Source of the DNA: an uncultured Thiohalophilus sp.
Lineage (GTDB): Bacteria > Pseudomonadota > Gammaproteobacteria > UBA6429 > Thiohalophilaceae
DNA: 64,000 nt
Direction of reading: 5' to 3'
Assembly (NCBI GenBank): GCA_964539595.1
Contig: CAZIJT010000001.1
Location: 4,142-68,141 of the forward strand
Shown here piece after piece: positions 5,206 to 35,532 of the stretch. Position numbers and translations under genes: made by a program. Position 1 is the first letter of the stretch. The number at the start of each line of letters is the position of its first letter. The notes below the pieces were generated by a model that searched no databases, was not told the DNA's origin, and saw only the letters and a program-made list of their open reading frames with translations.

Positions 5206-5214
5206 AAATGAGCC

Positions 5215-7460: not shown

Positions 7461-7517
7461 GTACGGCTTGTAGGTTCGACTTCAGTCGTACATCGGTAGT
7501 TAGCCGTTCCTACAGCG
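7457..7517. repeat. REP-like nested palindrome (GTAGGTACGGC ... GTAGGTTCGACTTCAGTCGTAC ... GCCGTTCCTAC)
   Basis: It lies in the intergenic region after the nosB-like gene. The same GTAGGT.CG.CTTCAG.CG.AC core recurs at 10622, 25036, 39721, 47027, 55556, 58696 and 63381. Confidence 0.75.
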
Positions 7518-7550
7518 AATTAACCCTCAGATAGATAACAGGAATCATCT

Positions 7551-9649: not shown

Positions 9650-9652
9650 GTT

Positions 9653-10618: not shown

Positions 10619-10621
10619 GCA

Positions 10622-10648
10622 GATACGGCTGAAGCCGTACCTACAGGC
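10622..10648. repeat. REP-like hairpin (ACGGCTGAAGCCGT + CCTACAGG)
   Basis: Palindrome between nosH and nosF. It belongs to the same family as the element at 7457. Confidence 0.6.
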
Positions 10649-10747
10649 CATGCCAACTTTTCAGTATGCACAGGTATTGGAAACGCTTATTTAGCCGAGC
10701 ATTAAAACATTTTTCACTTTGTTTCAAATTGAGCAATATAATAACAA

Positions 10748-11605: not shown

Positions 11606-12060
11606 GATTTTTTCTCAGCAGCATACTCACCCTGCTCCTGCTCAATGGCTGTAGTGAGCCACAAACCGGCGCGATTGAGCCGCACTGGGATCGCGATACC
11701 TGCGAACGTTGCCGCATGGTGCTCAGTGATCGCTTTCACTCTGCACAGGTTCGTTTTACTGACGAGAAAAATAAATCCCGGGTACGGATGTTCGATGATG
11801 TTGGTTGCGCCATCATCTGGTTAGAAAATCAAGACTGGCGTGATAACAAAAGCACAGAAATTTGGGTAACGGATCATCGTGATGGTAACTGGCTCGATGC
11901 ACGTAACGCCTTCTATGTCCGTGGTCATAACACCTCGATGGAATATGGACTAGGTGCGCAAACCGAAGCATCTACTGAGAGTATGAATTTTCCTGCCGCC
12001 AGAAAATTCATTTTTGAAAAAGAAAAAAACAGCAATGCCCACGGTAGCCATCATCACTAA
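11602..12060 (+). CDS. nosL: NosL, copper chaperone lipoprotein
   Basis: Lipobox LLLNGC and a C-x2-C-x-M block (CERCRMV) as in the NosL family. It ends in a His-rich tail, HGSHHH. It lies between nosF and nosY and overlaps nosF by 4 bp. Confidence 0.75.
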   Translation: MRFFLSSILTLLLLNGCSEPQTGAIEPHWDRDTCERCRMVLSDRFHSAQVRFTDEKNKSRVRMFDDVGCAIIWLENQDWRDNKSTEIWVTDHRDGNWLDARNAFYVRGHNTSMEYGLGAQTEASTESMNFPAARKFIFEKEKNSNAHGSHHH

Positions 12061-12887
12061 TGAAATATTTATTACTCACCGCCTACACCGATATTCTTGA
12101 ATCCCTGCGCAGCCGCTGGTTTCTGGTTTACAGCACCGTGTTCGGCGGTATCGTCGTGCTGCTATTTCTATTCGGCTTAACCGAATCACGGATCATGGGC
12201 TTCACCGGCATCACCCGCATGATGATCACCTATATCCAGCTATCGATGGCCATCCTGCCTATTTTTATTTTAATTACCACGGTGCGCTCGGTGGCAGGTG
12301 ATCGGGAAGCCGGGGTATTTGAATATCTGCTCTCACTGCCTATATCCTTAAGCGCCTGGTTCTGGGGCAAAATGGCAGGCCGCTTTGTGGTTGTCTTTCT
12401 GCCGGTTTTCATGGCACTGGTTGGCGCGGTTGTCTGGGGCGCGATTAAAGGCTCCGATGTCCCCTGGATTATTTTTCTTTATTACTCGGCTTTACTGTTT
12501 TCACTAAGCTGGTGTTTTCTCGGCATCGGCATGTTGATTTCCACCCTGGCACGTTCCGCTGATGTGGCGCAGGGTGCGGCCTTCATCGTCTGGCTCACGC
12601 TGATCCTGTTTCTGGATTTAATTTTACTCGGGGTGATGATTCGAGAATCACTACCCCCCGATGCCGCCGTGGCGTTGGCACTGACCAATCCTTTACAAGT
12701 TTTTCGTACCGCCGCCATGCTCCTGTTCGACTCACAACTGGTGCTGCTCGGCCCCACCGCCTATGTGATTCTCGATAACTTTGGTCGCGTTGGTTATATG
12801 GTCTTCGCACTGGCGTATCCTATATTCCTCGGCAGTCTTTGTGCCTTTATCGGCTATTTAATGTTTCGGCGCAGTGACCTTCCCTGA
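12060..12887 (+). CDS. nosY: NosY, ABC-2 type permease
   Basis: 275 aa with about six TM helices. Its start overlaps the nosL stop (TAATG). Confidence 0.8.
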   Translation: MKYLLLTAYTDILESLRSRWFLVYSTVFGGIVVLLFLFGLTESRIMGFTGITRMMITYIQLSMAILPIFILITTVRSVAGDREAGVFEYLLSLPISLSAWFWGKMAGRFVVVFLPVFMALVGAVVWGAIKGSDVPWIIFLYYSALLFSLSWCFLGIGMLISTLARSADVAQGAAFIVWLTLILFLDLILLGVMIRESLPPDAAVALALTNPLQVFRTAAMLLFDSQLVLLGPTAYVILDNFGRVGYMVFALAYPIFLGSLCAFIGYLMFRRSDLP

Positions 12888-12889
12888 CC

Positions 12890-13615
12890 ATGAACAACAG
12901 ACTCAACAACAGTTTTGGCTTTCAACACGTCGATGCCGCTGAACGCGAAAAACGCATTCGCCACGTTTTTGAGGTCGTCGCAAAGCGCTATGATCTGATG
13001 AATGATTTTATGAGTTTTGGTATTCATCGCCTGTGGAAAAAAACGTTAGTAAAGGAAGCCAATGCACAGGCCGGAGAAACTATTCTCGATCTGGCCGGTG
13101 GCACCGGTGATATCGCCCGCAAAATGGCCGCCGAGGATCGCAAGGTCATGATCATCGATCCCAGTCAGTCAATGATGCAGGTTGGTCAACAACGCGGCCT
13201 GACACAGGTTCAATGTCTGGCCGGTAGCGGAGAAGCCATTCCACTACAAGATAACTCTGTCGATACCCTGACTATTTCCTTTGGTATTCGCAACATGACC
13301 CACATGCAGCAGGCACTAAATGAAATCCAGCGGGTACTGAAGCCCGGGGGGCGCTGCCTGTGTCTTGAATTTTCCCGTCCCGCCGCCTGGCTACGTCCCT
13401 TTTATAACCTGTTTTCATTTCTGGTTATTCCTCGGCTTGGCGCACTGGTTGCCCGCGAACCCGCCGCCTACACCTATCTGGTCGAGTCCATTCGCCGCTT
13501 CCCCGATCAGGAAGAAATGAAGCAATTAATGGAAAAAGCGGGGCTTTGCAAAGTCTCTTATCGCAACTTCTCCTTTGGCATCGCCTGCCTGCATAGCGCA
13601 CAAAAATCCAGCTAA
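12890..13615 (+). CDS. ubiE: demethylmenaquinone / ubiquinone C-methyltransferase
   Basis: N-terminal FGFQHV..EK...V..VF..VA..YDLMND block, then the SAM motif LDLAGGTGD. Its start is 2 nt after the nosY stop. Confidence 0.9.
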   Translation: MNNRLNNSFGFQHVDAAEREKRIRHVFEVVAKRYDLMNDFMSFGIHRLWKKTLVKEANAQAGETILDLAGGTGDIARKMAAEDRKVMIIDPSQSMMQVGQQRGLTQVQCLAGSGEAIPLQDNSVDTLTISFGIRNMTHMQQALNEIQRVLKPGGRCLCLEFSRPAAWLRPFYNLFSFLVIPRLGALVAREPAAYTYLVESIRRFPDQEEMKQLMEKAGLCKVSYRNFSFGIACLHSAQKSS

Positions 13616-13696
13616 AGTCACGTAACATTTGAGCCGATAGCACTCTTATATAAGCGTTATATCTGAAAATTCTCCGCTCTGCGGAATACTTCATGG

Positions 13697-14620
13697 GTGA
13701 ACACGTTGGATAGTGCTGTCCACACTGATAATGAATATCGTAGTATCTCGACCGTCCTCGACAGTCTTGACGCGCTGGTCTATGTCGCCGACATGCAGAC
13801 TCATGAATTAATTTTTTTCAATCAATACGGAAAATCCATCTGGGGAGATGCACAGGGGCGTACCTGCTGGAAAGTATTACAGACCGAGCAAAATGGCCCC
13901 TGTTCATTTTGTACCAATGATCGGCTTATCGATGAGTCTGGAAAGCCCACCGGCATTTATGTCTGGGAGTTTCAAAACACGGCCAATGGGCGCTGGTATC
14001 AATGTCGTGATCAGGCTATTTACTGGGTTGATGGTCGTCTGGTACGCATGGAAATTGCCACCGACATCACTGATCGCAAGCTAATGGAAGATGAACTAAA
14101 ACAGGCCAAGGAAAAAGCAGAGCAACTTGCACGAACAGACGAACTCACCAATTTAAGTAATCGCCGAGCATTTTTTGAGCTAGGTGAAAAAGCATTCCAG
14201 CATGCGCGGCGTTTCAACAGCCCTCTAGGTTTGCTCATGTTTGACATCGATCACTTCAAAAAAATAAATGATCTTCACGGTCATGCGGTCGGCGACAAAG
14301 TTTTACAGGCACTCGGGAAATTACTCAAACAAAGCAACCGTGAAATTGATATTGTTGGCCGAATTGGTGGTGAAGAATTTGCACTGGTTCTACCTGAAAC
14401 GGATATCTCCGGCGCAAATGAACTAGCAGAGCGACTGCACCAGAATATTTCCAAACTGCAAATTGAAACCACCAATAGCAACATCAAGTGTACTATCAGC
14501 ATTGGCATATCGGAACTCCAACCACAACACGAATCACTGGACGAGCTGCTACTACATGCGGACAATGCCCTTTATGCGGCCAAACGAAAAGGCCGTAACT
14601 GCACAGTCAGTGCAGACTAA
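13697..14620 (+). CDS. PAS-GGDEF diguanylate cyclase
   Basis: GTG start. The N-terminal PAS-like domain carries a Cys triad (C-x14-C-x2-C). It has the GGEEF active site, preceded by the I-site REID. Confidence 0.85.
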   Translation: MNTLDSAVHTDNEYRSISTVLDSLDALVYVADMQTHELIFFNQYGKSIWGDAQGRTCWKVLQTEQNGPCSFCTNDRLIDESGKPTGIYVWEFQNTANGRWYQCRDQAIYWVDGRLVRMEIATDITDRKLMEDELKQAKEKAEQLARTDELTNLSNRRAFFELGEKAFQHARRFNSPLGLLMFDIDHFKKINDLHGHAVGDKVLQALGKLLKQSNREIDIVGRIGGEEFALVLPETDISGANELAERLHQNISKLQIETTNSNIKCTISIGISELQPQHESLDELLLHADNALYAAKRKGRNCTVSAD

Positions 14621-14645
14621 AAATAAATAGTTAGATGGATAGATA

Positions 14646-16100
14646 ATGCCTGAACCAGAATCACACCCTCTAAAACATTGGCTGGATAGAATTGCCAGCT
14701 CACATCCTCAAGCGCCAGCCATTTATATTGAAGATGAGGAAATAAACTATAGTCTTCTCAAAGATCAGGTCGATGCGCTGGTAAATGCGCTGACCCAGGC
14801 TGGAATTAAAAGTGGTGATCATCTTGCACTGATCACTGACTCCACGCGAATTATTGCACTGGTCGCCTACGCCGCCCCGCATATGGGCATTACCTTTCTG
14901 CCACTAAGCCCGAAGCTTCCCGATAAATGGCAACAACCGCTATTGCAACATGCGGGGATTAAATATGTACTCTGTGACAACCACATCAATAATGACTGGG
15001 ATTCGGATGTTAACGTCATCACTATTGGTCAATTGTTACTACAGCAATTCACATTAAGCACGGCTTCAGTTGAAACAAGCACGTCAATTTATACGCCGTT
15101 GATGTTAGCCACAAGTGGTTCCAGCGATATTCCAAAAATTGTTTTATTAACACCGGAAAATATTACCGCGTCTGTTCGCAATGCTAATCAATATCTTCAG
15201 CTTCAACATAATGATTTGTGGCTAAACTGCCTGCCCCTGTTTCATATTGCTGGGCTAATGATTCTCTACCGGAGTATTGCGCGTGGTGCCTCTGTGATTC
15301 TGCACGACAGCTTTGTCGCTGAAAAGATCTGGCATGATTTGCAGGCTCATCCCGTGACCCATCTGTCACTGGTACCCATTATGCTACTACGACTGCTTGA
15401 GGTTGCGGCTGAGCAACCACCCCCGCCCCAGCTTCGTTTCGTCATTATTGGGGGTGCCGCCCTGGATCCCGCACTTGCGCAACGTGCCCTGAAAAATGGC
15501 TGGCCACTTTATATGACCTATGGCCTGACCGAGACCAGTTCCCAGATCGCAGGTACTCAACTGGAGAGCGCAACGTTCAGTCATCCATTTGCACTCGAAC
15601 TCTATCAGGGTATTGAGGCACAAATACGCCATGCTCAGTCTTCAAATGATGGCAGTGGACAAATTGCCCTGCGCGGTGCGGCCATCATGTCAGGCTATGC
15701 GAATGTCCAGAACCCCTCCACACCTACACCAGATAAAGAGGGCTGGTTGCTAACTCAGGATATTGGCCAGCTGGATGATGAAGGTCGATTAATTATTCTA
15801 GGGCGTGCCGATGATGTCATTATCAGCGGTGGCGAAAACATTCATCCGGCACAGGTTGAATTTATTTTACAGGACTGTCCCGGCATCGACGAAATTGCCG
15901 TTGTCGGTAAAGATGATTCTGAATGGGGGCAATGCCTTATCGCCATATACACCGGCCATACCGACACAGAAAAAATAGAGCAATGGAGCCGAGAAAAATT
16001 AAAAGGTAACTGGCGACCCCGTCAGTTTATCAACAGCGAAGCGCTGCCTCATCTTGCAAACGGCAAACTTGATCGTCAGTCATTGGCAGCTGTAATTTGA
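14646..16100 (+). CDS. menE: O-succinylbenzoate-CoA ligase
   Basis: Member of the adenylate-forming (AMP-binding) family (MLATSGSSDIPK, YGLTET, GRADD). It lies in the men gene context. Confidence 0.75.
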   Translation: MPEPESHPLKHWLDRIASSHPQAPAIYIEDEEINYSLLKDQVDALVNALTQAGIKSGDHLALITDSTRIIALVAYAAPHMGITFLPLSPKLPDKWQQPLLQHAGIKYVLCDNHINNDWDSDVNVITIGQLLLQQFTLSTASVETSTSIYTPLMLATSGSSDIPKIVLLTPENITASVRNANQYLQLQHNDLWLNCLPLFHIAGLMILYRSIARGASVILHDSFVAEKIWHDLQAHPVTHLSLVPIMLLRLLEVAAEQPPPPQLRFVIIGGAALDPALAQRALKNGWPLYMTYGLTETSSQIAGTQLESATFSHPFALELYQGIEAQIRHAQSSNDGSGQIALRGAAIMSGYANVQNPSTPTPDKEGWLLTQDIGQLDDEGRLIILGRADDVIISGGENIHPAQVEFILQDCPGIDEIAVVGKDDSEWGQCLIAIYTGHTDTEKIEQWSREKLKGNWRPRQFINSEALPHLANGKLDRQSLAAVI

Positions 16101-19759: not shown

Positions 19760-19792
19760 GTAGGGTGGGCACGTTTTTTGTGCCCACCCTAC
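19760..19792. repeat. 13-bp perfect hairpin GTAGGGTGGGCAC-N7-GTGCCCACCCTAC between menD and menB
   Basis: Read directly from the sequence. The menD stop codon lies in the 3' arm. It is probably an intercistronic RNA stability or attenuation element. Confidence 0.6.
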
Positions 19793-21489
19793 TGTTCTAG
19801 CGACTGCCAGTAAGCCCGATGCCGGACAACACTATCGGCGGCATCGATCTCAACTTCTAATAATCTTGCGCCGGATTGTTTCAACATAACATCCAGCTTT
19901 GCGGCAAAATCATTTATTACCGTCACCTTGTCGTAGACCAGATTATACAGCCCGGCAACCTGCGAAAAATCCAGTCCCGGATCAGTCTGCCAGTCACGCT
20001 CGAACTCAGGCAAGGCCGCCTGCGGCAGGTGCTGAAAAATCCCACCACCATGATTGTTGATCACAATGATCAACACATCCAGCTCACGCAGCGCAAGCAA
20101 ACCATTCATATCATGGTAGCAGGCCAGATCCCCCAATAGTCCAACAAGCTTGCCTGTTTGATTATTTGCAGCCAGCCCCGCCAACGTCGAGACGTTTCCA
20201 TCAATACCACTCGCTCCACGATTAGCAACAATGCGTAGCAGTTTATCAGCGTGGCCGGAAAAACTGTCCAGATTACGAACCGGCATGGAGTTGCTGGAAA
20301 ACAGCGTGCTATGCGCTGGCAACGCGGCCACAAGTTGTTCAACAAGCTGTGCCTCAACAATATCTGTATCTACCAGTTTTTGCTGCGCCCGCTGTTCCTG
20401 CTGCAAAAAAGCCTCAAGCCAGGCCACTGGCGCAGCGGCAGAAACTCGACTGCGCAGCTGTTCACAGAACAGATCCACATCCGCAATCACCAGCGCATCA
20501 ATCTGCTGCAACGGATCACGCCAGCGCGCCTGTGGATCGAGTAGAACCGTAAAACTGTCAGCACAGGTGTCGAGATAATTAAGCAAGTATTTTGAAACCG
20601 GCACCGCGCCGAGACGCAAAATCCATTCAGGCTGATGCTCGGCAACAAAATTGGCTGCGCGTAAAAAACTATCATAGCGCGTGATCAGCGGATGCTTGTG
20701 ATGTTCCCCAAAACGTAAAGTAGAAAGTGGATCAGCTAGCACCGGCACACCCAAAACACTGGCTAGTTGCAATAGCGCATCGGCGTGCATCACGTCAGTT
20801 GATTCTGGCCCGGCGATAATTACTCCGGTCTTGCCCGCCAATCTCTCAGCCAGGTTTTGCAGCTGTGTCGGATCAGGCTGGGCAACAGGAAATGCTGGCT
20901 GGGCATCATCATGACTAAACTCCAGCCGCAGCTCATCATCTATGTCTGGCGTCAGCGGTTCAGTAAAAGGGATATTCAAATGCACCGGACCAGGCAGCGG
21001 CCAGCGACTTTCAGTAATACTGCGGCGACCAAGCTGCTGCGCATAGCGCAATTGCGCCGGGCTATCTCCCGCCAGCGGCAGGGCATGAAACTGGCGCAGC
21101 TGACCACTGAATAATTGCCTCTGATCAATCGTCTGGTTCGCCCCCCAGCCCTGTAATTCTGGCGGTCGATCCGCACTCATTAAAATCAGTGAAATGGCAC
21201 TGTGATGGGCTTCGATCACGGCAGCCAACCAGTGTGCGGCGGCGCTACCCGAGGTGGCAATCAGGGCAACGGGACGAGCCTCCATTCGCGCCAGCCCCAG
21301 GGCAAAAAAGGCGGCACAACGTTCATCAATCTGGATCCAGGTTTTTAACGCCGGATGACGTTCACAGGCCAGTACCAGCGGCGTCGAACGGGAACCGGGA
21401 GAAATCACTACTTGCCGCAAGCCTGCGGCGACCAGGCCATCGATTAGCGCCTGCGCCCAGCGCAGATTAATGCTGCCCTGATCAGACAT
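19789..21489 (-). CDS. menD: SEPHCHC synthase (ThDP-dependent)
   Basis: 566 aa. The N-terminus (NLRWAQALIDGL...GSRSTPL) and a GDL...ND ThDP-binding block are typical of MenD. Confidence 0.85.
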   Translation of the reverse strand: MSDQGSINLRWAQALIDGLVAAGLRQVVISPGSRSTPLVLACERHPALKTWIQIDERCAAFFALGLARMEARPVALIATSGSAAAHWLAAVIEAHHSAISLILMSADRPPELQGWGANQTIDQRQLFSGQLRQFHALPLAGDSPAQLRYAQQLGRRSITESRWPLPGPVHLNIPFTEPLTPDIDDELRLEFSHDDAQPAFPVAQPDPTQLQNLAERLAGKTGVIIAGPESTDVMHADALLQLASVLGVPVLADPLSTLRFGEHHKHPLITRYDSFLRAANFVAEHQPEWILRLGAVPVSKYLLNYLDTCADSFTVLLDPQARWRDPLQQIDALVIADVDLFCEQLRSRVSAAAPVAWLEAFLQQEQRAQQKLVDTDIVEAQLVEQLVAALPAHSTLFSSNSMPVRNLDSFSGHADKLLRIVANRGASGIDGNVSTLAGLAANNQTGKLVGLLGDLACYHDMNGLLALRELDVLIIVINNHGGGIFQHLPQAALPEFERDWQTDPGLDFSQVAGLYNLVYDKVTVINDFAAKLDVMLKQSGARLLEVEIDAADSVVRHRAYWQSLEQ

Positions 21490-22970
21490 CAGCCGGTGGC
21501 GCGGGGAGCCTGTCTCACCGCCCCGCTATCTTCATTTTCAGATACATTTTCGAGTATCTGAAGCAGCGACCGCAGCTTCAGATCGGTTTCTGCCAACTCC
21601 CCCACTGGATCCGAATCCGCCACCACCCCCGCCCCGGCATACAGATCCGCCTGCCGTCCCTGCAACAGGGCGCAGCGCAAAATTACCGACAACTCACCAT
21701 TGCCACCGCGTTCCAGCCAACCTGCCGCGCCGGTGTACCAGCCTCGGGCAAACGGTTCATGCTGTTTGATCCACGCCTGCGCCTTCGCCGTTGGCGTCCC
21801 CGCCACCGCCGGGGTTGGGTGCAGACGAGCAACAATATCCAGTAAACCCACCCCCGCTCGTGCCTGCGCCTTGATCGGTGTCCACAAATGCTGGAGTTGC
21901 CGCAACGGCATTACCGCAGGCGTGTTCGGTAGCTGTAGGGATGAACACAGCGGATCAAGGGCACGCAGCATTTGATCTACCACCAGCGCATGTTCACGGC
22001 GAATCCGTGGACTCTGCATTAATTCATTCGTCATCGTCTGATTATGACCGGCACACTCACTACGCGGCATGGTGCCACCCAACGCATCGCAGCGCAGCTG
22101 CCCATCAGTAAACTGCACCAGTTTTTCTGGCGTCGCGGCCACCAGGGTCGAACCACCCAGACCGATACCCAATTGCGTGCAGCCCGGAAACTGCCGCGCC
22201 AACTTTTCTAGAATCTGTGTGGGGCGCAAGACTCGGCAAGCCTGAAAGTGCAGGTGACGTGCGGGCACAACCTTGGTGAATTCACCGGCATGGATCGCTT
22301 GCCGAACCTGCTCGACCTGCTTCAGCCAGGTTTCATTTTCAGGTTCAGACTGGATCAGTTGCAGGCCAGCGCACTGATCATCTTCCAGCCCCGCTGACTC
22401 TGATGTTAGTAACTCTCGGCATAACCCTAGCCAGTCCTGCACCTGTCGCAAACGTTGCGGCGGCGTACGTAAACATTCTGGTTTCGCACTCAGGTGTAAA
22501 CTTACCTGTTCGCCATCCTGTTGTAGCAACACCTGCGGCACGCTCAGCAGGGTATTCGGCCAGGCCTGCCAGGGCGCAGCTGCGGCTTCGTCTGCAGCAA
22601 ACGCAAAGCCCACAAACGCTGCCGCCTGTGGCAGGCGCGTCGAGCCATCCAGCGCATGCACCGCCCACCCGGCTTGCAGGCACCGAAAAGCCTGCTGTAG
22701 TTCGGCAACACGCGGTGCATCACCGCCGTCACCCGCCGCCGACTCATACGTATACGCACACCCCAGCCCTAACCTGAATCGATTACGATCAGGCTGGGCG
22801 CTGTAGAAAAACATTGCATCAGTAGCGGGAAGGTTAAACTTTGGCACTAGCGTCAGCGGCAGACTTAAGGTGCACAGTGCCGCCGTGTCTGGCCAACACA
22901 GATCATCCAGTGCCTGGCTCAGTTGAATTTGCAGCGCAGAAAGAAGCTTATTAATAGGGCAAGTTTTCAT
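21489..22970 (-). CDS. menF: isochorismate synthase
   Basis: 493 aa. The C-terminal chorismate-binding blocks are LHPTPAVAG, RGWY.G and AGAG.V. It is the first gene of the men operon. Confidence 0.8.
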   Translation of the reverse strand: MKTCPINKLLSALQIQLSQALDDLCWPDTAALCTLSLPLTLVPKFNLPATDAMFFYSAQPDRNRFRLGLGCAYTYESAAGDGGDAPRVAELQQAFRCLQAGWAVHALDGSTRLPQAAAFVGFAFAADEAAAAPWQAWPNTLLSVPQVLLQQDGEQVSLHLSAKPECLRTPPQRLRQVQDWLGLCRELLTSESAGLEDDQCAGLQLIQSEPENETWLKQVEQVRQAIHAGEFTKVVPARHLHFQACRVLRPTQILEKLARQFPGCTQLGIGLGGSTLVAATPEKLVQFTDGQLRCDALGGTMPRSECAGHNQTMTNELMQSPRIRREHALVVDQMLRALDPLCSSLQLPNTPAVMPLRQLQHLWTPIKAQARAGVGLLDIVARLHPTPAVAGTPTAKAQAWIKQHEPFARGWYTGAAGWLERGGNGELSVILRCALLQGRQADLYAGAGVVADSDPVGELAETDLKLRSLLQILENVSENEDSGAVRQAPRATG

Positions 22971-23567: not shown

Positions 23568-24983
23568 ATGCCCAGTATGAATTACCGTATCCTCTGCCTG
23601 CTGCTTGGTCTATTGGGCAGTGGCCTGGTACAGGCAACCTCCTTGCACATCGTAGTCAGCATCAAGCCCATTCATTCGATCATCAGCGGCCTGATGGAAG
23701 GTGTCGAGCAGCCCGAACTACTGATCTCAGGTAACGCCAGCCCTTACACCTACCAGCTAACTGCGGCGCAAAAGGCATCACTAAAAACTGCCGATCTAAT
23801 TATCTGGACAGGCGCGGAGCTTGAACCCTTTTTGCCCGAGGAGCTAAAAAAACTCAAGGCCCCCAGCAAGATCATTGAGTTATTGAACAACCCGGAAATC
23901 AAGGTTCTGCCACAGCGCAAAGACGAAACACGCCGCGATCCCTACCTCTGGCTCGACAGCCGCAACGCCCTGATTCTGCTCGATGCCTTCACCCGTATGC
24001 TGATCGATCTTGATCCCGTTCGCACCCATCTCTATGTGCGCAACCGCGCTAACATGCTCGCCGTTTTATCCCGCGTTGATCGAGAGCTGGAATATGGTTA
24101 TCGCGGAATGAAAGCAGGCGTGGGCTACCTCTACTATGACAGTCTGCAATATTTTGAACAGGCTTATGCGCTGAAAATACGCGGCACATTGTTAACCGCA
24201 CCCAATGAGCCGATTAACACTCAACAACTGCTACAGGCGCATGCCCAGCTCAATAATGGTGATTACCGTTGCCTGTTGGTAGAGACGGACGTTAGCGATG
24301 CACAGATTCAATTACTGACAGGGGACGCCAACATCAACATTGGCCGACTGGACAGTATGGGGCGGCAATTCAAACCCGGCGCTGATTTATACGCAAAGCT
24401 GATGCGTTATAACACTCGGGTAATAAAAGACTGTCTCGGAATTCAGGATCAGGATGCGGCAGATACACTCACTCAAAACAGCAATGCTATCGCTGGTAAT
24501 ATTGGCGGCCACTTTATTATGGTCAACCATCGTGGCGAACAAATCACGGATCGAGACATGCGGGGCAAATACCAGCTGATCTATTTCGGTTACACCTCAT
24601 GCCCCGATGTCTGCCCCATGTCTTTGCAGGTCATGTTGCAGGCGCTTAAAAAAATCGGCGACAAAGCCGCTGCTTTTCAGCCCTATTTTATTACTGTTGA
24701 TCCTGAACGCGATAGCCAGACAGTGATGCAGGACTATGTTAATTACTTTGACCAACGCATCATCGGACTCACCGGCACACCGAATATGACCGAGATCATG
24801 GCCCAACATTTCCGTATTCGCTACGAGAAAGTAATCAATGATCCTGAACATCCAGAAAACTACCAGATGGATCACACCTCAAGTATTTTTATTATCGATC
24901 CCAAAGGCCAATTTGTTGCCCGCGTCGCCAGCAATATTACAGCCCGGCAAATGGCCGCGCGTTTACTGGAGCTGGTTGATTAA
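23568..24983 (+). CDS. fusion of a ZnuA/TroA-like periplasmic binding domain and a Sco1/SenC copper chaperone domain
   Basis: The N-terminal ~290 aa match cluster A-I SBP blocks (IKPIHS, SPYTY, ADLIIWTG.ELE.FL, DPYLWLD, YDSLQYF). The C-terminal ~170 aa carry the Sco motif YFGYTSCPDVCP and the downstream DHTS block. Confidence 0.8.
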   Translation: MPSMNYRILCLLLGLLGSGLVQATSLHIVVSIKPIHSIISGLMEGVEQPELLISGNASPYTYQLTAAQKASLKTADLIIWTGAELEPFLPEELKKLKAPSKIIELLNNPEIKVLPQRKDETRRDPYLWLDSRNALILLDAFTRMLIDLDPVRTHLYVRNRANMLAVLSRVDRELEYGYRGMKAGVGYLYYDSLQYFEQAYALKIRGTLLTAPNEPINTQQLLQAHAQLNNGDYRCLLVETDVSDAQIQLLTGDANINIGRLDSMGRQFKPGADLYAKLMRYNTRVIKDCLGIQDQDAADTLTQNSNAIAGNIGGHFIMVNHRGEQITDRDMRGKYQLIYFGYTSCPDVCPMSLQVMLQALKKIGDKAAAFQPYFITVDPERDSQTVMQDYVNYFDQRIIGLTGTPNMTEIMAQHFRIRYEKVINDPEHPENYQMDHTSSIFIIDPKGQFVARVASNITARQMAARLLELVD

Positions 24984-25815: not shown

Positions 25816-26130
25816 ATGCAACGATTTTTTAATACTGGCTGGACTTTATCTATTTTTATGGCGCTAATCTGCATACTGGCTGCTCCTGTTAACACCCTCT
25901 ATGCCTCTGAGCATTCTCCATCCGCTACTGCACGAACATCCACACTGCCAGCAGGCGAACTAGCAACGACGACACCGGCAGAAAATAAAACCTCAGCAGC
26001 CAAAAACCCGGAAAGAAAACTCTCTGCTTTTTTTAAAGTTGGCATTGCTATTAATATCGCCATGATGCTTACCTTTGCCTGGTGGGCGCAGCGCCAATGG
26101 CGAATGTCTACAAAAAACAAGGATACCTAG
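25816..26130 (+). CDS. small membrane protein (hypothetical)
   Basis: 104 aa with a signal/TM segment and a C-terminal TM. Its stop overlaps the start of the downstream Sco gene (TAGATG). Confidence 0.45.
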   Translation: MQRFFNTGWTLSIFMALICILAAPVNTLYASEHSPSATARTSTLPAGELATTTPAENKTSAAKNPERKLSAFFKVGIAINIAMMLTFAWWAQRQWRMSTKNKDT

Positions 26131-26760
26131 ATGACGACAAAATCATCTTCGCTCAACAAGAGCCTGTTATTATTTCTCATCTCTATGCTGATCCTCGCGG
26201 CAATCGTCGTATTCAGGCTACTACCGTCGAAGCAAATACCCGCCGAATTGCAGGCCGTATTACGCATTCAGCCAGTAACATTAACCGACTTTGAACTCAC
26301 GGATCAAAGCGGCAAAGCCTTTACTCTGGCGCAACTAAAAGGCAAAAGAACCCTGCTGTTTTTCGGCTATATGTCCTGCCCGGATATCTGCCCGACAACA
26401 CTAACCACACTTGCTCAGCTGGTAAAAAAACTTGACGCCTATGCTAATGCCGATTTACAGGTGGTGTTTGTCTCGGTCGATCCAAAACGCGACCCACCTG
26501 AAAAACTGGCCGAATACTTAAATTATTTTAATCCTAATTTTATCGGCCTTGGCGGTGACAAAGAAGCCATCGATAAGTTTACCCGTCAGTTTGCTGCAGG
26601 CTATATGCTGGAAGAAGAACAGAAGGACGGTAATTACCTTGTCTCACATACCAGTTCAATTTTTATGATCGATCCACAAGCCAAACTCATCGCAACATTT
26701 TCGCCACCACATCAGATTGATACTCTTGTTTCTCTGTATCGTCAGATCAAGAAAATCTAA
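26131..26760 (+). CDS. Sco1/SenC family copper chaperone
   Basis: N-terminal TM anchor, the FFGYMSCPDICP CxxxC motif, and a downstream SHTSS His block. Confidence 0.85.
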   Translation: MTTKSSSLNKSLLLFLISMLILAAIVVFRLLPSKQIPAELQAVLRIQPVTLTDFELTDQSGKAFTLAQLKGKRTLLFFGYMSCPDICPTTLTTLAQLVKKLDAYANADLQVVFVSVDPKRDPPEKLAEYLNYFNPNFIGLGGDKEAIDKFTRQFAAGYMLEEEQKDGNYLVSHTSSIFMIDPQAKLIATFSPPHQIDTLVSLYRQIKKI

Positions 26761-26788
26761 ATTCGCTTTCGACTGAGCTGATATCTCA

Positions 26789-27217
26789 ATGGACATCATT
26801 CCGTTTTTACCGCCATTACAGGCCGGACTCAATGCTTTGTCTACACTGCTGCTGAGTCTGGGTTATTATTTTATTCGCAACAAAAATAAAACCGCACACC
26901 GTCGCTGTATGATCTCGGTGCTATTTGTTTCCACCCTGTTTACCATCTCCTATCTGTATTACCATTCCCAGGTAGGTAATGTTGCCTTTGCGGGTCAGGG
27001 GCTTATTCGACCGGTTTATTTTTCGCTTCTTATTTCACATATTTTTCTGGCCGCCCTGATCATTCCAATGGTATTAACGACTGTCTGGCGAATCATCCAG
27101 CGGCAAACAGAACGACATCGACAACTGGCTCGCTGGACATTGCCCGTGTGGCTGTATGTCTCGGTCACTGGAATCATGATCTACATCATGGCCTTTCATC
27201 TTTATCCCACAACATAA
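26789..27217 (+). CDS. DUF420 family membrane protein (oxidase-assembly associated)
   Basis: 142 aa with four TM helices. The N-terminal LNA.S..LL..G...I block is typical of DUF420. It is adjacent to the Sco gene. Confidence 0.6.
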   Translation: MDIIPFLPPLQAGLNALSTLLLSLGYYFIRNKNKTAHRRCMISVLFVSTLFTISYLYYHSQVGNVAFAGQGLIRPVYFSLLISHIFLAALIIPMVLTTVWRIIQRQTERHRQLARWTLPVWLYVSVTGIMIYIMAFHLYPTT

Positions 27218-27302
27218 TTACTGCGACCAAAATAACAGGGCAAAGTAACCGCTGAACAGGTATTATCGAGATTACGCCATTAAACTTACAAGGTACTAAA
27301 TA

Positions 27303-27551
27303 ATGGAAATGGTTTATTACACCGTGGTTGCTGTCCTGCTCTATCTGGTTTCGGACTGGCTATTGACCCGGATCGAAATTTATAAAGGTGCACGCCTGGC
27401 TAACCGTTCAATCTACTTTTTTACAATTATCATGGTGCTCTCAGTCGGGTCGTTCTCACTAATTAGCGCACTGTATGAGAAACCAGTGGTGGAAACGAGT
27501 AACACCACAACTGCACCAGCAACAGCCGAGCCCAGCAGCGTTCCTGATTAA
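27303..27551 (+). CDS. small two-TM membrane protein (hypothetical)
   Basis: 82-aa ORF with two hydrophobic segments and a Thr/Ala/Pro-rich tail. Confidence 0.4.
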   Translation: MEMVYYTVVAVLLYLVSDWLLTRIEIYKGARLANRSIYFFTIIMVLSVGSFSLISALYEKPVVETSNTTTAPATAEPSSVPD

Positions 27552-27570: not shown

Positions 27571-28947
27571 TTATTTCGGGCGCGTGGCTTTGATCACAAT
27601 AATAAGAAAAATGATGCCACCAACAATGGCAACCAGCCCGCCCATTCCCATCAGTCCCATGCCCGCGACTTTCTCAATTCCATCCAGTCCCTGCGCCGCA
27701 CCTGCAGTTTTACGCTGCACCCCATAGCCGCCCGACCAGGCCAGCCCGGTCACATGCATCAATTGTCCAACCGCATAGATAACCGGTTGCAGACGAACCA
27801 TTTTCCCTTCTGGTTTTCTAAAGCCGAGACGCGGCAGTAAATGGTAGGTAATACCCATAAAGGCCAGCGTCACCGCGACAATTGAACCGTGATAATGAGC
27901 CGGTACGGTTACATTGCTGCCACTGATCATAAAACCAATCACGCCACCAACGCCGAATAATAAAATCGAACTCAACAATGCATTGGTTTCTGCGCTCGCC
28001 ATAAGTCGATTGCTACCGACTAACAGGCTATAAACAATAATCAGACCTACTGGCAAGGCCGCCAGTCCTCCACCGTATTGCATCAACCAGGTGATCGCCT
28101 GCAGATGATCACCCCCACCCACATCAAACATGAAATAAACAACGGGTGTACTCAACACCGGGATCACACCCAGAGCAAATAAAACCAGCGCCACTCGCGG
28201 GGTAAGCCGGGGCACGACGCCTGATATTGTCGCCAGACATAACCAGGCCACCAGCATTAGCTGAATATGAACAAATTGTAATGTGTGCCCACTGCCCCAG
28301 AACAGCAGTTCATAATAATGTTTGCCCGTCGCGCTCTCAGGCATCCCGTACCAGGAGGCGAGCAGGGCAAAGACGGCAGTAAATGCGGCAATCAGCGCGG
28401 TGTATAAACCAAAGCGTATCGCGCCCGCGCCACTGATAATCGCGCCGATGGAGCGGGAAAACAGCAATCCACGCAGCACGGTAATGCTAAAGCCAATCCC
28501 AAACATGCCCAGCCCGGTGAAAAAAATCGGATCCTGTAGCACCGGGACATAGTTGTTCATCAGCGGTTCAGCTGCCCCCAGAAACGGGGCGATGACAATA
28601 ATGCAGGATCCGGCAATCGCCAGCCACAAACCCAACCAACCACATGCCGTGCAACGTGCCGTACTGTTAAGACTCCAGAACATGCCGGCATACCCCAGGA
28701 ACCAGACCAGCACGGTTAGATCGACATGCACCACCAAGGCGGTATGAAAGAAATCTACCCAGGGAATAATTTCCTGAATAAACGGTGTTCTGGATAACAC
28801 CAGCAGAATAGTAAACAGACCGGCGACCAGCAGTGAACCAACCGCCAGCATTAACCAGCCTATGCCGATTTGGGTGCTGGCGTGATCATCCGGCACATCC
28901 AGTGAAAAACTGTCTAGCAAGGCATTTGGAGTGTATTCTGTTTTCAT
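27571..28947 (-). CDS. divergent heme-copper oxidase superfamily subunit I-like membrane protein
   Basis: 458 aa with about 12 TM helices. His residues fall in an HCO-like pattern: FFHTALVVH (helix II), FWGSGHTLQF (compare FWFFGHPEVY), D280-H281 where HH is expected, and VPAHYHGSIV (compare VAHFHYV). Confidence 0.55.
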   Translation of the reverse strand: MKTEYTPNALLDSFSLDVPDDHASTQIGIGWLMLAVGSLLVAGLFTILLVLSRTPFIQEIIPWVDFFHTALVVHVDLTVLVWFLGYAGMFWSLNSTARCTACGWLGLWLAIAGSCIIVIAPFLGAAEPLMNNYVPVLQDPIFFTGLGMFGIGFSITVLRGLLFSRSIGAIISGAGAIRFGLYTALIAAFTAVFALLASWYGMPESATGKHYYELLFWGSGHTLQFVHIQLMLVAWLCLATISGVVPRLTPRVALVLFALGVIPVLSTPVVYFMFDVGGGDHLQAITWLMQYGGGLAALPVGLIIVYSLLVGSNRLMASAETNALLSSILLFGVGGVIGFMISGSNVTVPAHYHGSIVAVTLAFMGITYHLLPRLGFRKPEGKMVRLQPVIYAVGQLMHVTGLAWSGGYGVQRKTAGAAQGLDGIEKVAGMGLMGMGGLVAIVGGIIFLIIVIKATRPK

Positions 28948-31254: not shown

Positions 31255-32142
31255 TCAAATGCCGGGTGGCCGTTTGCCGTACCGGTATTCACGCACAATA
31301 AAAACAATCGTGTAGATGATAATCGACAGGCCGATAAACATGCCGATGAAAAGCGAATAATCAAACTGGTAGCTGTCAGTGAAGGGATCATAGGTGGTAC
31401 AGAAGAAACGTACATCGTCCACCAGGCTGGAAAAAAAGCTCTGACTGGGTTTGGGCTGTCCCAGCACCAGTTCCATCAGGGGTTCAACCAGCAACTGGGT
31501 ATCAAAAACCTCACCATAGACCTGGCGATAAATTTTACCTGTTGCATCGACCACGGTTGCCTGCACGACATGATCAAAACCATTGGGGGAAGAAAAGAAT
31601 TTAAACCCCAGTTCTTTGGTTAACGCAGAAATGGTCTTCCTGTCAGCGCTGAGCAAGTGCCAGTTACTGTTGTCGATTCCCTGTTTTTTGGCAAAATTCT
31701 GCATCGCCTGTGGATTGTCATATTGCACATCAAAGCCAATAACTGCAACGGAAAAACTGTCATCCCCCAATGCCTCACGCGCCTTCTCCACTACACTCGA
31801 AAGGTGGCGAATGGTCATCGGACAGATTGCGTAACAGCTAGTGTAAACCATGCTGATCACCAGCGGCTTACCTAAAAAAATCTCAGTGGATACTGCCCGG
31901 CTATGCTCATCGGTCAAAGAAAAATGACTCAGAGTGCGCCCTATCGCATCCTGACTGGCCTGCAAGGCAGACTTGTACTGAAATTTCTGAATAGATTTCT
32001 GCGGGGGGACTATATCTTCAGAAGTAGCGTGCGCATACAGCGCAGGAAGCATGAGCAACAGGGCGAGAAAAACTGAACGGATACTGAGAATCAGAGGCCG
32101 TGTTATTGAGGTGGTAAAAAACATCAACCACCGTTGGGTCAC
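31255..32142 (-). CDS. Sco1/SenC-like protein with C-terminal transmembrane extension
   Basis: Signal/TM segment, a thioredoxin-fold CxxxC motif (YTSCYAICP), and a FDHVV His block. An extra ~70-aa tail ends in a TM helix. It overlaps the ctaB stop by 4 bp. Confidence 0.7.
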   Translation of the reverse strand: MTQRWLMFFTTSITRPLILSIRSVFLALLLMLPALYAHATSEDIVPPQKSIQKFQYKSALQASQDAIGRTLSHFSLTDEHSRAVSTEIFLGKPLVISMVYTSCYAICPMTIRHLSSVVEKAREALGDDSFSVAVIGFDVQYDNPQAMQNFAKKQGIDNSNWHLLSADRKTISALTKELGFKFFSSPNGFDHVVQATVVDATGKIYRQVYGEVFDTQLLVEPLMELVLGQPKPSQSFFSSLVDDVRFFCTTYDPFTDSYQFDYSLFIGMFIGLSIIIYTIVFIVREYRYGKRPPGI

Positions 32143-33202: not shown

Positions 33203-33238
33203 ATAAACAGAGGCTGGGCAGCGGTTATTACGCTGCCC
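33203..33238 (-). terminator. hairpin GGGCAGCG-N7-CGCTGCCC downstream of HCO subunit I, followed by a T-rich tract on the minus strand
   Basis: An 8-bp GC-rich stem lies 18 nt after the subunit I stop. The minus strand continues CTCTGTTTATTTA. Confidence 0.5.
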
Positions 33239-33255
33239 AACGCCTGCCTCAACTA

Positions 33256-34992
33256 CTAACCACCCATCGGCCAGACCGAGGCCAGATACTTCCAGTTAAT
33301 GAAGTAGTAAACCACGAAGGTTACTAGCAGCAAGATCGCCAGGGCGAAGGTTCCCGGAGCTTCGAAGCCAGAGCCGTGATGTTCTTCTTTCGGCTTGGGT
33401 GCCATTTCCAGTCTTTCAGGTTTGGCAATATTATAAACTGATGCTGCCAATGGCTTGCCAATGAAGCACTCCAGGAAACCAGCCGAGGCTTCCAGTTTCT
33501 TACCGAACAGCAGAGAGCCCACGGTAATCAGCAAGAAGGCACCGCCACCTACAATGGCGAGCACACCACCGATACAGCCAATGGCCATCAGGGTATACGC
33601 CATGCCGGAATATTCAAAGGTCAGCAGAGCACCGGTGAAGTCCATATCCCAATGACGACGAGATACACCCAGCGTTCCTGCACCCAGCATGAACAGAATC
33701 AAGATGACCATGCCACCACTGAAAATATACGGTTGCAGTTTGGCTAGCCAGGGGAGGATTATCTGGCGACGGAATAATACTGGAATCAACAGATACGTCA
33801 GCGCCATAAACGCCAGCGTTGTACCCGTCACCACCGTTGCATGGAAATGCGCAGGCACATAAATCGTATTATGGATGATCAGGTTAATCTGCTCTGTCCC
33901 CATGACGACACCGGTGATACCACCAATGAAACCGAAGGTAACCAGCGAGATGAACATGCCAGAGAAGACAGGATTGCCCCAGGGTGCCTTACGCAGCCAT
34001 TCAAATAGCCCCTTGGTCAGCCCCTTACCACGTTGAGCGACTTCGATGGAACCCGGTACGGTCAGACCATGAATCATACTGGCGAGTACGGCCAGGTACA
34101 TGGCATAACTGGTGTTGAAGATTTTCCATTCAGTACTCATGCCCGGATCAACCAGGATGTGATGCGCACTGGCCAGCTGCAGGAAGAAAATATACAGCAG
34201 GAACGCAAAACGGCTGACTTTCTCCGACATGGGACGCGCACCAAACAGAATACCGGCAAGCAAATACCAGATGGCAACATGTGCTGACACGTTAATCTGC
34301 TGTGAGGAGTGACCCAGTGCCCACCAGATCACGCGATACATTTCCGCATCGATGTGATTGATATAACCCACTGACCAAAGAAACGTAGGAACCAGAATAA
34401 TCGCGCCACTTGCAATGGTAAACACGGCAATGATGGCGGCCACAATCGCACCAAAGGTTACAATCGGCACGGAACCGTCATAGGTCTTTTCCTGCTGCGC
34501 AACAACCAGCGTACCGAAAAAGACGAAGACCTGAACCAGCGCGCCGACAGCAAACAGAATCAATCCCAGATAGAAATGCGGTGCCGCCTGCATAGGTACA
34601 TAGGAAGTCATCATCACACTCGAGTTACCCTGAAATACCGCGACATTGTTCATGATCGCGCCAATCAGCATCAGGAAGAACCCGGCCCATGCCCACCCCG
34701 GCGTAGCCAGTCGGCAACGCAGCAAGGTAGTCGAGGCGAAATGCAGGATGGCCATTTCAAAAAAGATAACCCAGAAAATCAGGGCATTGATACCATGCCC
34801 CGTCAACACCTGGTAGAAAAGATCAGCCGAAAGTAGATGCACTTCCTGCCAGCGAGTGAGCACAACTCCCAACGCGAGAATACCGGCTATTAACAAAGCA
34901 ACAACACCGGCAACCGCATTCACCTTCATCAGGCGTTCTGCGTCACGGTTAAAATAAAATCCCGAATCGGGACATTGACGAAATGCAGACAT
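33256..34992 (-). CDS. heme-copper oxidase superfamily subunit I, B-family-like with atypical active-site helix VI (candidate NO reductase or atypical oxidase)
   Basis: 578 aa. Helix II is YQVLTGHGINALIFW. The CuB His lies in WWALGHSSQQ instead of GHPxVY. It has an SAHH pair and a VPAHFHATVV heme-ligand pair. Confidence 0.8.
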   Translation of the reverse strand: MSAFRQCPDSGFYFNRDAERLMKVNAVAGVVALLIAGILALGVVLTRWQEVHLLSADLFYQVLTGHGINALIFWVIFFEMAILHFASTTLLRCRLATPGWAWAGFFLMLIGAIMNNVAVFQGNSSVMMTSYVPMQAAPHFYLGLILFAVGALVQVFVFFGTLVVAQQEKTYDGSVPIVTFGAIVAAIIAVFTIASGAIILVPTFLWSVGYINHIDAEMYRVIWWALGHSSQQINVSAHVAIWYLLAGILFGARPMSEKVSRFAFLLYIFFLQLASAHHILVDPGMSTEWKIFNTSYAMYLAVLASMIHGLTVPGSIEVAQRGKGLTKGLFEWLRKAPWGNPVFSGMFISLVTFGFIGGITGVVMGTEQINLIIHNTIYVPAHFHATVVTGTTLAFMALTYLLIPVLFRRQIILPWLAKLQPYIFSGGMVILILFMLGAGTLGVSRRHWDMDFTGALLTFEYSGMAYTLMAIGCIGGVLAIVGGGAFLLITVGSLLFGKKLEASAGFLECFIGKPLAASVYNIAKPERLEMAPKPKEEHHGSGFEAPGTFALAILLLVTFVVYYFINWKYLASVWPMGG

Positions 34993-34995: not shown

Positions 34996-35532
34996 TTATT
35001 CCCCCACGTAAATCTTGCCAACCATAGTATGGTGGCCAATACCGCAATATTCGTTACAAATAACCCCGTACTCACCTGCTTTATCTGGAGTCATATTTAT
35101 AACCATTTCATAGCCTGGAATCACCTGCAAATTGATGTTAACGGGTTGCAGGGAGAAGCCATGCTGATAATCCATTGCGGATAAATGAAAACGGTAGCTC
35201 TTGTCTTTTTCCAATTCCAGGATCGGCCACCACTGCCACAAACGTCCCAACATGTAGACGTCACTGCCAGCAGGCGGATGCACAACCGGAATACCGGATT
35301 CTTCACGCACCGTGTACTTGTCGATCATTTCCTGAACCTTAACCCCGTATGCAGCAGGCGTGGTTTGATAGGCCTCAGTAGAAAGGTTCTGTTTTCCATA
35401 AATATGCCAGATAGGCATCATGGCAAACATAATTAAACACCAGATCAGGGCAATGGCAATCCACACGAGCTCCTGACGCCCGACAGGCACATTCCACCAA
35501 ATTCGGTCAGAAGGCGGTAAAAATGTAGTCAT
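34996..35532 (-). CDS. heme-copper oxidase subunit II with CuA centre
   Basis: 178 aa with a single TM helix, a cupredoxin His block (DYQHGF) and the CuA motif CNEYCGIGHHTM. Confidence 0.85.
   Translation of the reverse strand: MTTFLPPSDRIWWNVPVGRQELVWIAIALIWCLIMFAMMPIWHIYGKQNLSTEAYQTTPAAYGVKVQEMIDKYTVREESGIPVVHPPAGSDVYMLGRLWQWWPILELEKDKSYRFHLSAMDYQHGFSLQPVNINLQVIPGYEMVINMTPDKAGEYGVICNEYCGIGHHTMVGKIYVGE

Follow-up and report, generated by a model that had tools for sequence, protein, structure and literature searches.

Two groups of nitric oxide (NO) reductases within the heme-copper oxidoreductases (HCOs) form the closest described background to the locus reported here. In eNOR, a Gln at the position of the cross-link Tyr is diagnostic (PMC8756737), heme As is found in both sites, and CtaA, the heme A synthase, is included in many of the operons (Murali et al. 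2024, PMC11214002). gNOR has been described as an HCO in which Asp takes the place of one active-site His, accompanied by a cupredoxin-fold subunit II devoid of CuA. The subject of the present analysis is a gene in a 64,000-nucleotide stretch of DNA from an uncultured Thiohalophilus sp. (contig CAZIJT010000001.1; the whole stretch is referred to below as the window), which encodes a short HCO subunit I homologue:

27571-28947, minus strand: HCO subunit I-like protein (the HCO-like protein), 458 aa, 12 transmembrane (TM) helices; from the open reading frame (ORF), Pfam and an AlphaFold2 (AF2) model

An earlier note on this DNA had proposed a gNOR-like metal site in the protein, formed by an Asp-His pair in place of the CuB histidines; its description of gNOR as an HCO with a His-to-Asp change agrees with the published description. 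The data presented below provide good support for a different assignment, namely that of a degenerate paralogue of eNOR/B-family HCO subunit I, which may act in the maturation of heme cofactors.

The family to which the protein belongs is large, mis-annotated, functionally uncharacterised and HCO-derived, and a single publication has drawn attention to it, without analysing it. In Ferrigenium straubiae, an operon syntenic with the one in the window was classed as eNOR, and the orthologue in it, whose orthology to the window protein rests on gene order and annotation, was named 'eNOR scaffold protein of unknown function' (IMG gene 2878407321, annotated COX subunit I/K02274; bioRxiv 10.64898/2026.01.22.701106). 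According to the same preprint the scaffold gene was transcribed at 70-390 transcripts per million (TPM), with 0 in the single heterotrophic sample, the eNOR I and II genes were at 2,000-15,000 TPM in the 28 °C denitrifying condition, and the scaffold protein was seen in the proteome. Its authors proposed a supercomplex, speculated that NO reduction drives NAD+ reduction, and asked how heme A arises anoxically (bioRxiv 10.64898/2026.01.22.701106). The residues of the scaffold protein, its wider contexts and its fusions are not analysed there, and our literature search found no paper that analyses the residues of the family or its ctaA/ctaB and ResB/CcsA contexts. The manner in which heme A is inserted into subunit I is itself unknown, as stated in a review (PMC9145763).

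Homology and fold

The protein matched the Pfam COX1 profile with 49.2 bits (cut-off 34.8) over profile positions 2-424 of 436, and zero NCBIfam models matched either it or the 168-aa protein encoded next to it. When PDB sequences were searched with the protein as a single sequence, only a chance match, to a glycosyltransferase, was obtained; the family profile retrieved B-family ba3 chains only, with an E-value of 2e-20. An AF2 model made from 54 homologues (predicted local distance difference test, pLDDT, 84; predicted template modelling score, pTM, 0.88) displayed twelve TM helices. As determined by Foldseek against the PDB, all 20 significant matches of this model were HCO subunit I chains (TM-score 0.57-0.75), including those of ba3, cbb3, aa3, cNOR and qNOR, and at the 21st match the TM-score fell to 0.24; no unrelated transporter, the outcome that would have spoken against the earlier note, was among the significant matches. 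Because the Pfam score lies above its threshold and the structural matches are all HCO subunit I, the label 'HCO-like' is correct, and the protein is a true HCO subunit I homologue. By hhalign, the family profile matched a set of 46 eNOR subunit I (eNOR-I) sequences with a probability of 99.93 % (E 1e-35), compared to 55 % (E 1e-4) for an A-family COX1; judged by these profiles, the family is much nearer to eNOR-I than to an A-family COX1.

The CuB site and the Asp-His pair

The potential ligands listed in the earlier note, namely H68, H74, H221 in FWGSGHTLQF, D280-H281, and H351/H353 in VPAHYHG, are all found at those positions. The claim that D280-H281 occupies the place of the CuB His-His pair is contradicted by three alignments, which agree in placing the canonical pair opposite V270-Y271, at the P-side end of helix VII. 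In the alignment of the family profile with Thermus thermophilus ba3 (E 2e-20), H282-H283 lie opposite 270-271 and H233 opposite H221; the hhalign alignment with the neighbouring 578-aa eNOR-I (probability 99.8 %) and the profile-profile alignment with the 46 eNOR-I sequences from related loci (99.93 %, E 1e-35) place the pair at the same two residues. Common to all three is the DPG motif that follows the His pair and corresponds to D275-V-G277 of the window protein, the aligned motifs being HHILVDPG..STEWKIFNT in eNOR, HHQFADPG.DPTWKMIHS in ba3 and VYFMFDVG.GGDHLQAIT here. Since this motif anchors the alignment, D280-H281 pairs with the E-W of 'STEW' in eNOR and with the P292-W294 stretch of 'DPTW' in ba3, 10 residues past the His-His position and in the first turn of helix VIII (279-310 in the AF2 model). 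An A-family COX1 alignment that placed the pair at L282-Q283 was disregarded, as its probability was just 55 % and the three concordant alignments of high confidence give V270-Y271.

Conservation was examined in 127 representatives of 50 %-identity clusters, about 31-50 % identical to the window protein, as well as in 54 closer relatives at 62-89 % identity. In the latter H281 is invariant and D280 highly variable (D11, M10, N9, L6, E4, T3); in the diverse set, position 281 is H36/F32/Y30, position 280 is E57/A17/D7, and column 271 is Y68, F19, H8. H281 is one of the variants found at an aromatic position that is conserved. The idea that E280 and H281 alternate as ligands, one of them being always present, was likewise rejected, as many members have neither (A-Y, A-F, N-Y).

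Only one of the three CuB/FeB histidines is therefore left (H221, helix VI), and not two together with an Asp, because both histidines of the helix VII pair are gone. The cross-link Tyr is absent as well: as the earlier note had observed, the residue at His+4 is Phe (F225), and in the diverse set this position is F100/Y11 of 127. The eNOR diagnostic is likewise missing, the Gln of the window protein (Q224) being at H+3 and F225 at H+4.

Retained heme ligands and the lost proton path

In contrast to the metal site, the residues expected around the hemes are retained. Kept in at least 90 % of the 127 members are H74, H221, H351, Y352, H353, Q224, E213, W217, Y133, R412, K413, T286 and M289, as well as N132 and P135; D280, H281, H68 and H227 fall below that level. 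The axial histidines H74, H351 and H353 are each 98-99 % conserved, and together with R412-K413 they remain at about 97-99 % down to 35 % identity. H74, H351 and H353 align with ba3 H72, H384 and H386, which we take to be the low-spin and high-spin heme ligands, so that H74 and H353 would be the ligands of the low-spin heme and H351 that of the high-spin heme. Of the two helix II residues proposed earlier as ligands, H74 is supported by its alignment with H72, and H68 is not conserved family-wide. R412-K413 is the counterpart of the ba3 propionate partners R449-R450, W217 that of ba3 W229, and the retained N132-Y133-x-P135 that of the YPP loop.

The polar ladder of helix VIII (S305/H308/T311) is invariant in the 46 eNOR-I sequences, as are N293-T-S-Y and Y299. 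The equivalent positions of the HCO-like family (297, 300 and 303) are P/A, L/I/V and L/A/Y, and residues 292-305 are apolar, indicating that the K-type cytoplasmic proton path has been lost. Because the heme ligands are kept and both the metal-site residues and the helix VIII ladder are gone, the protein resembles a subunit I in which two hemes are still bound but the CuB/FeB site, the Tyr/Gln and the proton path are missing. A gNOR-like Asp-His site favouring non-heme iron, as suggested in the earlier note, is not borne out by this picture: both His of the pair are gone, the Asp is off-site and the ladder is absent.

Gene cluster in the window

The HCO-like gene is the last of a minus-strand eNOR operon, in the order CuA subunit II, eNOR-I, CtaB, Sco, cytochrome b-iron-sulfur (FeS)-MvhD, 168-aa protein, HCO-like protein. 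The other features of the cluster, the divergent ctaA gene and the convergent accessory operon are as follows:

34996-35532, minus strand: eNOR subunit II with CuA, 178 aa, motif CNEYCGIGHHTM; head of the cluster
33256-34992, minus strand: eNOR-type HCO subunit I, 578 aa; six His ligands all present, GHSSQQ, ladder S305/H308/T311
33213-33241, minus strand: terminator-like hairpin, 11 pairs (8 G-C), just past the eNOR-I stop codon
32139-32996, minus strand: UbiA-family protoheme farnesyltransferase (heme O synthase, CtaB-like)
31255-32142, minus strand: SCO1/SenC-like copper chaperone, 295 aa
29609-31165, minus strand: cytochrome b-2x[4Fe-4S]-MvhD/FlpD fusion, 518 aa
29110-29646, minus strand: protein of 168 aa (ATG at 29616) or 178 aa (GTG start) with one N-terminal TM helix
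36010-37116, plus strand: heme A synthase CtaA/COX15, 368 aa, divergent from the eNOR operon
25816-26130, plus strand: 104-aa membrane protein, first gene of the convergent accessory operon (25816-27551)
26131-26760, plus strand: SCO1, convergent accessory operon
26789-27217, plus strand: DUF420/CtaM, convergent accessory operon
27303-27551, plus strand: 82-aa membrane protein, convergent accessory operon

The 578-aa HCO is assigned, from its sequence, as eNOR subunit I, since GHSSQQ supplies Gln at the Tyr position and the operon is syntenic with the eNOR operon of Ferrigenium; an alternative assignment as sNOR was dropped on the same two grounds. The earlier statement that no CuA subunit is adjacent to the HCO-like gene is correct insofar as none touches the ORF; a CuA subunit II does, however, head the same minus-strand cluster, where it is paired with eNOR-I, and the HCO-like protein itself lacks a dedicated cupredoxin or cytochrome c partner.

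The strong terminator-like hairpin is located in the intergenic gap of 259 bp that separates eNOR-I from ctaB. This hairpin is possibly an attenuator dividing highly expressed structural genes from accessory genes; such an element could account for a lower expression of the latter, and the transcript levels in Ferrigenium are consistent with this. The 82-aa and 104-aa membrane proteins have no family assignment, the former being present in 33 of 66 related loci. A Crp/Fnr regulator gene comes after ctaA. Upstream of the accessory operon, a 471-aa fusion (23568-24983, plus strand) joins a periplasmic metal-binding domain of the ZnuA type (Pfam 1.8e-36) to a complete SCO1/SenC domain (9.8e-48), an unusual copper-chaperone architecture and the third Sco paralogue within 9 kb. 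Adjoining the oxidase-maturation genes are MenD-like (thiamine pyrophosphate enzyme) and MenF-like (chorismate-binding) genes (19789-22970, minus strand), whose sequences suggest menaquinone synthesis in a gammaproteobacterial vent organism. A NosZ-like protein of 764 aa (nos_propeller plus cupredoxin/CuA) is encoded at 2381-4675 (plus strand), followed by same-strand ORFs to about 16100; the NosZ-like gene together with eNOR marks the window as a denitrification island. The segment 27571-31165 was found nearly intact in DNA metagenome runs from hydrothermal vents (96-98 % of sampled words), and a run search for its transcripts returned no RNA run with the sequence; the window is therefore assigned to an uncultured gammaproteobacterium from such vents.

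Immediate partners

The earlier note had named the 168-aa protein and the cytochrome b-FeS-MvhD fusion as the nearest partners of the HCO-like protein. Their genes are indeed the ones immediately upstream, and a natural cytochrome b::HCO-like fusion exists. Homologues of the 168-aa protein are confined to these clusters (82 matches, none named), and in 39 of 75 loci its gene is the immediate upstream neighbour of the one for the HCO-like protein. No Pfam match was obtained for it. Its AF2 model consists of one TM helix and a beta-sandwich (pLDDT 94), and C55 and C76 are invariant. The possibility that it is a degenerate cupredoxin subunit II was rejected, since Foldseek returned generic beta-sandwiches only: among the best 50 listed of its 918 PDB matches there was no cupredoxin or COX2, and none of them reached E<=1e-3.

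The cytochrome b fusion is composed of a b6/ExtP-like di-heme domain, an ExtQ-like TM part, two [4Fe-4S] motifs and an MvhD/FlpD domain, and its gene lies within 1.5 kb of the HCO-like gene in most loci. As the protein has neither a Tat nor a Sec route, we infer that its FeS part is cytoplasmic, and the fusion could therefore carry electrons across the membrane. Two paralogues of the fusion per cluster were observed in L034, L040, L043, L057, L066 and L073-L075 (Gallionellaceae; L numbers denote individual related loci) and in several Burkholderiales loci. A paralogue of about 650 aa contains FAD- and NADH-binding domains, as reported in the Ferrigenium preprint (bioRxiv 10.64898/2026.01.22.701106).

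The family in other genomes

A word-indexed search returned 6,817 proteins at E<=1e-3, and an exhaustive search of 50 % representatives 1,464 clusters, 609 of them at E<=1e-30; in a scan of species genomes, at least 592 confirmed genomes carried the family. The carriers are mostly Gamma- and Betaproteobacteria (Arenicellales, Sedimenticolaceae, Thiotrichales, Gallionellaceae, Burkholderiales, Rhodocyclaceae), with further members in Nitrospirae and Magnetococcus, and cultured ones include Noviherbaspirillum sp. ST 5-3, Seongchinamella sediminis, Pelomicrobium sp. G1, Sedimenticola selenatireducens and Motiliproteus. In the databases the members are named 'cbb3-type cytochrome c oxidase subunit I', 'cytochrome c oxidase subunit I' or 'hypothetical'. 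One contig labelled 'uncultured Halobacteria archaeon' (L006) contains the whole cluster in its gammaproteobacterial form, with 65 % identity to the window protein, and is either mis-binned or the product of a recent transfer.

Neighbours were counted with targeted phmmer queries in the 66 related loci whose flanks extend over at least 5 kb; an unbiased clustering of neighbouring ORFs was unusable, because families became joined to one another through spurious, overlapping ORFs where loci are GC-rich. Of the neighbours counted, cytochrome b-FeS and Sco each accompanied the HCO-like gene in 56 of these loci, the 168-aa protein did so in 52, eNOR-I in 50, CtaB in 47 and CtaA in 41. The seven-gene order of the eNOR operon recurs in related loci, and in many the ctaA gene immediately adjoins the HCO-like gene.

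An association with eNOR is not obligatory for the HCO-like family. The gene follows an A-family oxidase and CtaB in L015 (Nitrospirae), L031 and L059, and in Sedimenticola selenatireducens it is part of a classical aa3 cluster, COX2-COX1-Cox11-COX3-Surf1-CtaB, then the HCO-like gene, then CtaA-Sco; the same position between ctaB and ctaA is found in L128, L139, L146 and L151. A third context was seen in 41 of 80 metagenome loci from the branch nearest the members fused to tetratricopeptide repeats (TPR), in which a multiheme cytochrome c, ResB, CcsA, the HCO-like protein (with or without TPR) and TlpA/ResA are encoded in succession, an arrangement that is, by its gene content, a System II cytochrome c maturation operon. 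The operons with a large multiheme cytochrome c, ResB and CcsA (L085, L086, L088 and about 40 of L089-L168) sometimes also include a CycH-type TPR protein, and the HCO-like protein in them is often extended by a 13th TM helix and, on the periplasmic side, a TPR tail. A candidate for such a TPR-fused form is the 'TPR repeat NrfG' gene that follows ccsAB in the Tenderiales uet cluster.

Three natural fusions were identified: cytochrome b::HCO-like, with nirS as the next gene; HCO-like::UbiA (CtaB), located behind a subunit II-subunit I pair; and HCO-like::13th TM::TPR. Every fusion protein retains H74, H351, H353, H221, Q224 and R412-K413, with E213 and T286 differing in one member each. Identity to the window protein is 40-47 % in the ctaA/ctaB context and 30-45 % in the Ccs context. 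In a crude neighbour-joining tree the sequences of the ctaA/ctaB context are basal, those of the Ccs context form one clade, and those of the eNOR context make up a large clade that also includes some members of the aa3 context.

Proposed role and alternatives

The explanation that we favour, and to which we would give an even chance of being right, is that the HCO-like protein is a di-heme accessory protein in heme-cofactor maturation and not a terminal reductase. The eNOR, aa3-ctaA/ctaB and ResB/CcsA contexts lead to this reading because what they share is the processing and transfer of heme in the membrane, and not a respiratory substrate; for the same reason they argue against a stand-alone NO or O2 reductase. 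Further support comes from the retention of the heme pockets after loss of the metal site and the proton path, from the CtaB and TPR fusions, and from the low expression in Ferrigenium. In the window, the protein would act alongside CtaA, CtaB, the three Sco proteins and CtaM on behalf of the heme-A(s)-dependent eNOR, whose genes lie upstream. Its subunit-I-like pockets would hold heme (B, O or A) transiently, and its low-spin heme would be wired to the cytochrome b-FeS-MvhD fusion, with electrons passing between the P side and either the cytoplasm or the quinone pool, so that the bound heme would be kept in the right redox state for CtaA or for transfer to apo-eNOR-I. The 168-aa periplasmic beta-sandwich protein would be its structural partner. 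What the data establish is the homology, the loss of catalytic residues, the retained heme ligands, the conserved synteny and the fusions; heme binding, the partners and the role in chaperoning or redox conditioning are proposals.

Several observations weigh against this explanation. The co-location with ctaA and ctaB could mark a client that needs heme A, and not a helper; the tight link to cytochrome b-FeS-MvhD fits a respiratory electron-transfer complex at least as naturally; and the strong conservation of the polar pocket residues H221, Q224 and E213 suggests chemistry and not holding. Heme binding is itself something that we infer from the conserved ligands. In Sedimenticola, moreover, Surf1 co-occurs with the HCO-like gene, and the protein is therefore not simply a Surf1 substitute. 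A replacement of heme A synthase by the HCO-like protein was rejected, as CtaA is encoded in the window, is adjacent in many loci and co-occurs in Sedimenticola.

A less probable, though still realistic, alternative is that of a separate respiratory module, in which the HCO-like protein would join cytochrome b-FeS-MvhD and the 168-aa protein in a membrane complex that couples quinol oxidation to the reduction of a cytoplasmic carrier via FeS/MvhD. The HCO-like protein would then replace the Rieske/c1 high-potential branch, or provide a heme-only catalytic site for a small molecule; in Gallionellaceae the carrier could be reduced via the FAD/NAD domain, in line with the speculation on NAD+ in the Ferrigenium preprint. 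This alternative accounts for the tightest partner in the window, with cytochrome b-FeS found in 56 of the 66 loci and mostly within 1.5 kb, and it is consistent with the cytochrome b::HCO-like fusion next to nirS, with the conserved heme ligands and polar pocket residues, and with the supercomplex proposed in the preprint. It is at odds with the occurrence of the HCO-like protein without a cytochrome b partner in aa3/ctaA-ctaB clusters and ResB-CcsA operons, with the lack of a proton pathway and of two of the three CuB histidines, and with transcripts that are low compared to those of the eNOR structural genes.

According to another possibility, which we regard as improbable, the protein is a cofactor-less and purely structural pseudo-subunit, an inactive paralogue that stabilises or templates the assembly of eNOR-I and takes no part in heme chemistry. 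The name 'scaffold protein' given in the preprint and the loss of the catalytic residues would fit; the protein is, however, also found where there is no eNOR, and conservation of the axial histidines and the propionate pair at about 97-99 % down to 35 % identity would be unexpected if no heme were bound. Less probable again is a redox-neutral heme enzyme acting on NO or O2 (dismutase-like, O2-scavenging or O2-supplying) that would aid the O2-dependent heme A synthase near anoxia: such an enzyme would require no proton channel and no subunit for electron entry, in agreement with the absence of both here, and both the adjacency of ctaA in many loci and the preprint's question on anoxic heme A formation are in keeping with it, but it leaves the ResB-CcsA context and the cytochrome b-FeS partner unexplained and is pure inference. 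A gNOR-like NO reductase, in which D280-H281 and H221 would bind a non-copper metal beside the H351 heme, can hardly be upheld: the Asp for one active-site His in gNOR, the D280-H281 pair and the absence of the Tyr are in its favour, but D280 is variable and position 281 is H/F/Y, the His pair maps to V270-Y271 in three alignments, the 168-aa neighbour has no match to the cupredoxin fold of gNOR subunit II, the gene contexts are those of heme maturation, and the preprint, with its HCO analysis credited to J.H., calls the orthologue a scaffold protein and not gNOR (bioRxiv 10.64898/2026.01.22.701106).

If the heme-maturation role is correct, the family would offer a testable handle on heme A insertion and on maturation at low O2. 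It touches the question of how heme-A-dependent NO reductases mature in near-anoxic denitrifiers (PMC9145763; bioRxiv 10.64898/2026.01.22.701106), sits in the relevant heme-maturation operons, and has cultured carriers amenable to deletion. A broader scenario, speculative and on balance doubtful, is that the HCO fold has been repurposed as a general membrane device for heme handling and redox conditioning, used in heme A synthesis and insertion (eNOR, aa3) as well as in System II cytochrome c maturation, with the HCO-like protein and its cytochrome b-FeS-MvhD partner together supplying the missing step of electron delivery and transfer for making and loading heme A at vanishing O2. Unless the family is separated out, respiratory capacity would be over-counted in genome surveys in which COX1-like genes are scored as oxidases or NO reductases.

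Comparison with known systems

The resemblance to heme-handling assembly factors lies in genomic company, with no kinship in sequence or fold, so that the analogy would be a functional one. Like the heme a insertion factors Surf1, CtaM/DUF420 and CbaX, the HCO-like gene is found with ctaA, ctaB, Sco, CtaM and Surf1, and in cytochrome c maturation loci it is in the company of ResB, CcsA, ResA and a CycH-type TPR protein. The pairing of a membrane b-heme protein (CcmF/NrfE) with a periplasmic TPR protein (CcmI/NrfG) in cytochrome c maturation is also common to the TPR-fused members.

gNOR, compared here by its description and not by reference sequences, resembles the HCO-like protein in being B-family kin, in having no Tyr and in probably not depending on cytochrome c/CuA. 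It differs in keeping two His and an Asp and in its cupredoxin-fold subunit II, whereas the window protein has one His and a partner with no cupredoxin match, and its Asp is unconserved and off-site.

Among solved structures the best match, both by profile (E 2e-20) and by Foldseek E-value, is subunit I of T. thermophilus ba3 (PDB 1XME/1EHK). Counterparts of ba3 H72/H384/H386, H233, W229 and R449-R450 are all present in the window protein, whereas H282/H283, Y237 and the K-path residues S309, T312, T315 and Y248 have none.

The closest profile match (E 1e-35) is eNOR-I, which shares with the HCO-like protein the fold, the heme ligands, the Trp of WxxGH, a Gln at H+3, the DxG after helix VII, the Thr that opens helix VIII, the Arg/Lys pair and one operon. 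The HCO-like protein differs in having V-Y for the His pair, Phe for Gln at H+4 and no S/H/T ladder in helix VIII, in being 120 aa shorter, and in having no CuA partner of its own. At the level of the operon, Ferrigenium straubiae is the nearest described system: eNOR II, eNOR I, heme O synthase, Sco1, cytochrome b-FeS, a hypothetical protein and a COX1-like gene follow one another there, with the window gene in the same distal place, and the locus of Ca. Ferrigenium bremense (L074) has the gene order of both.

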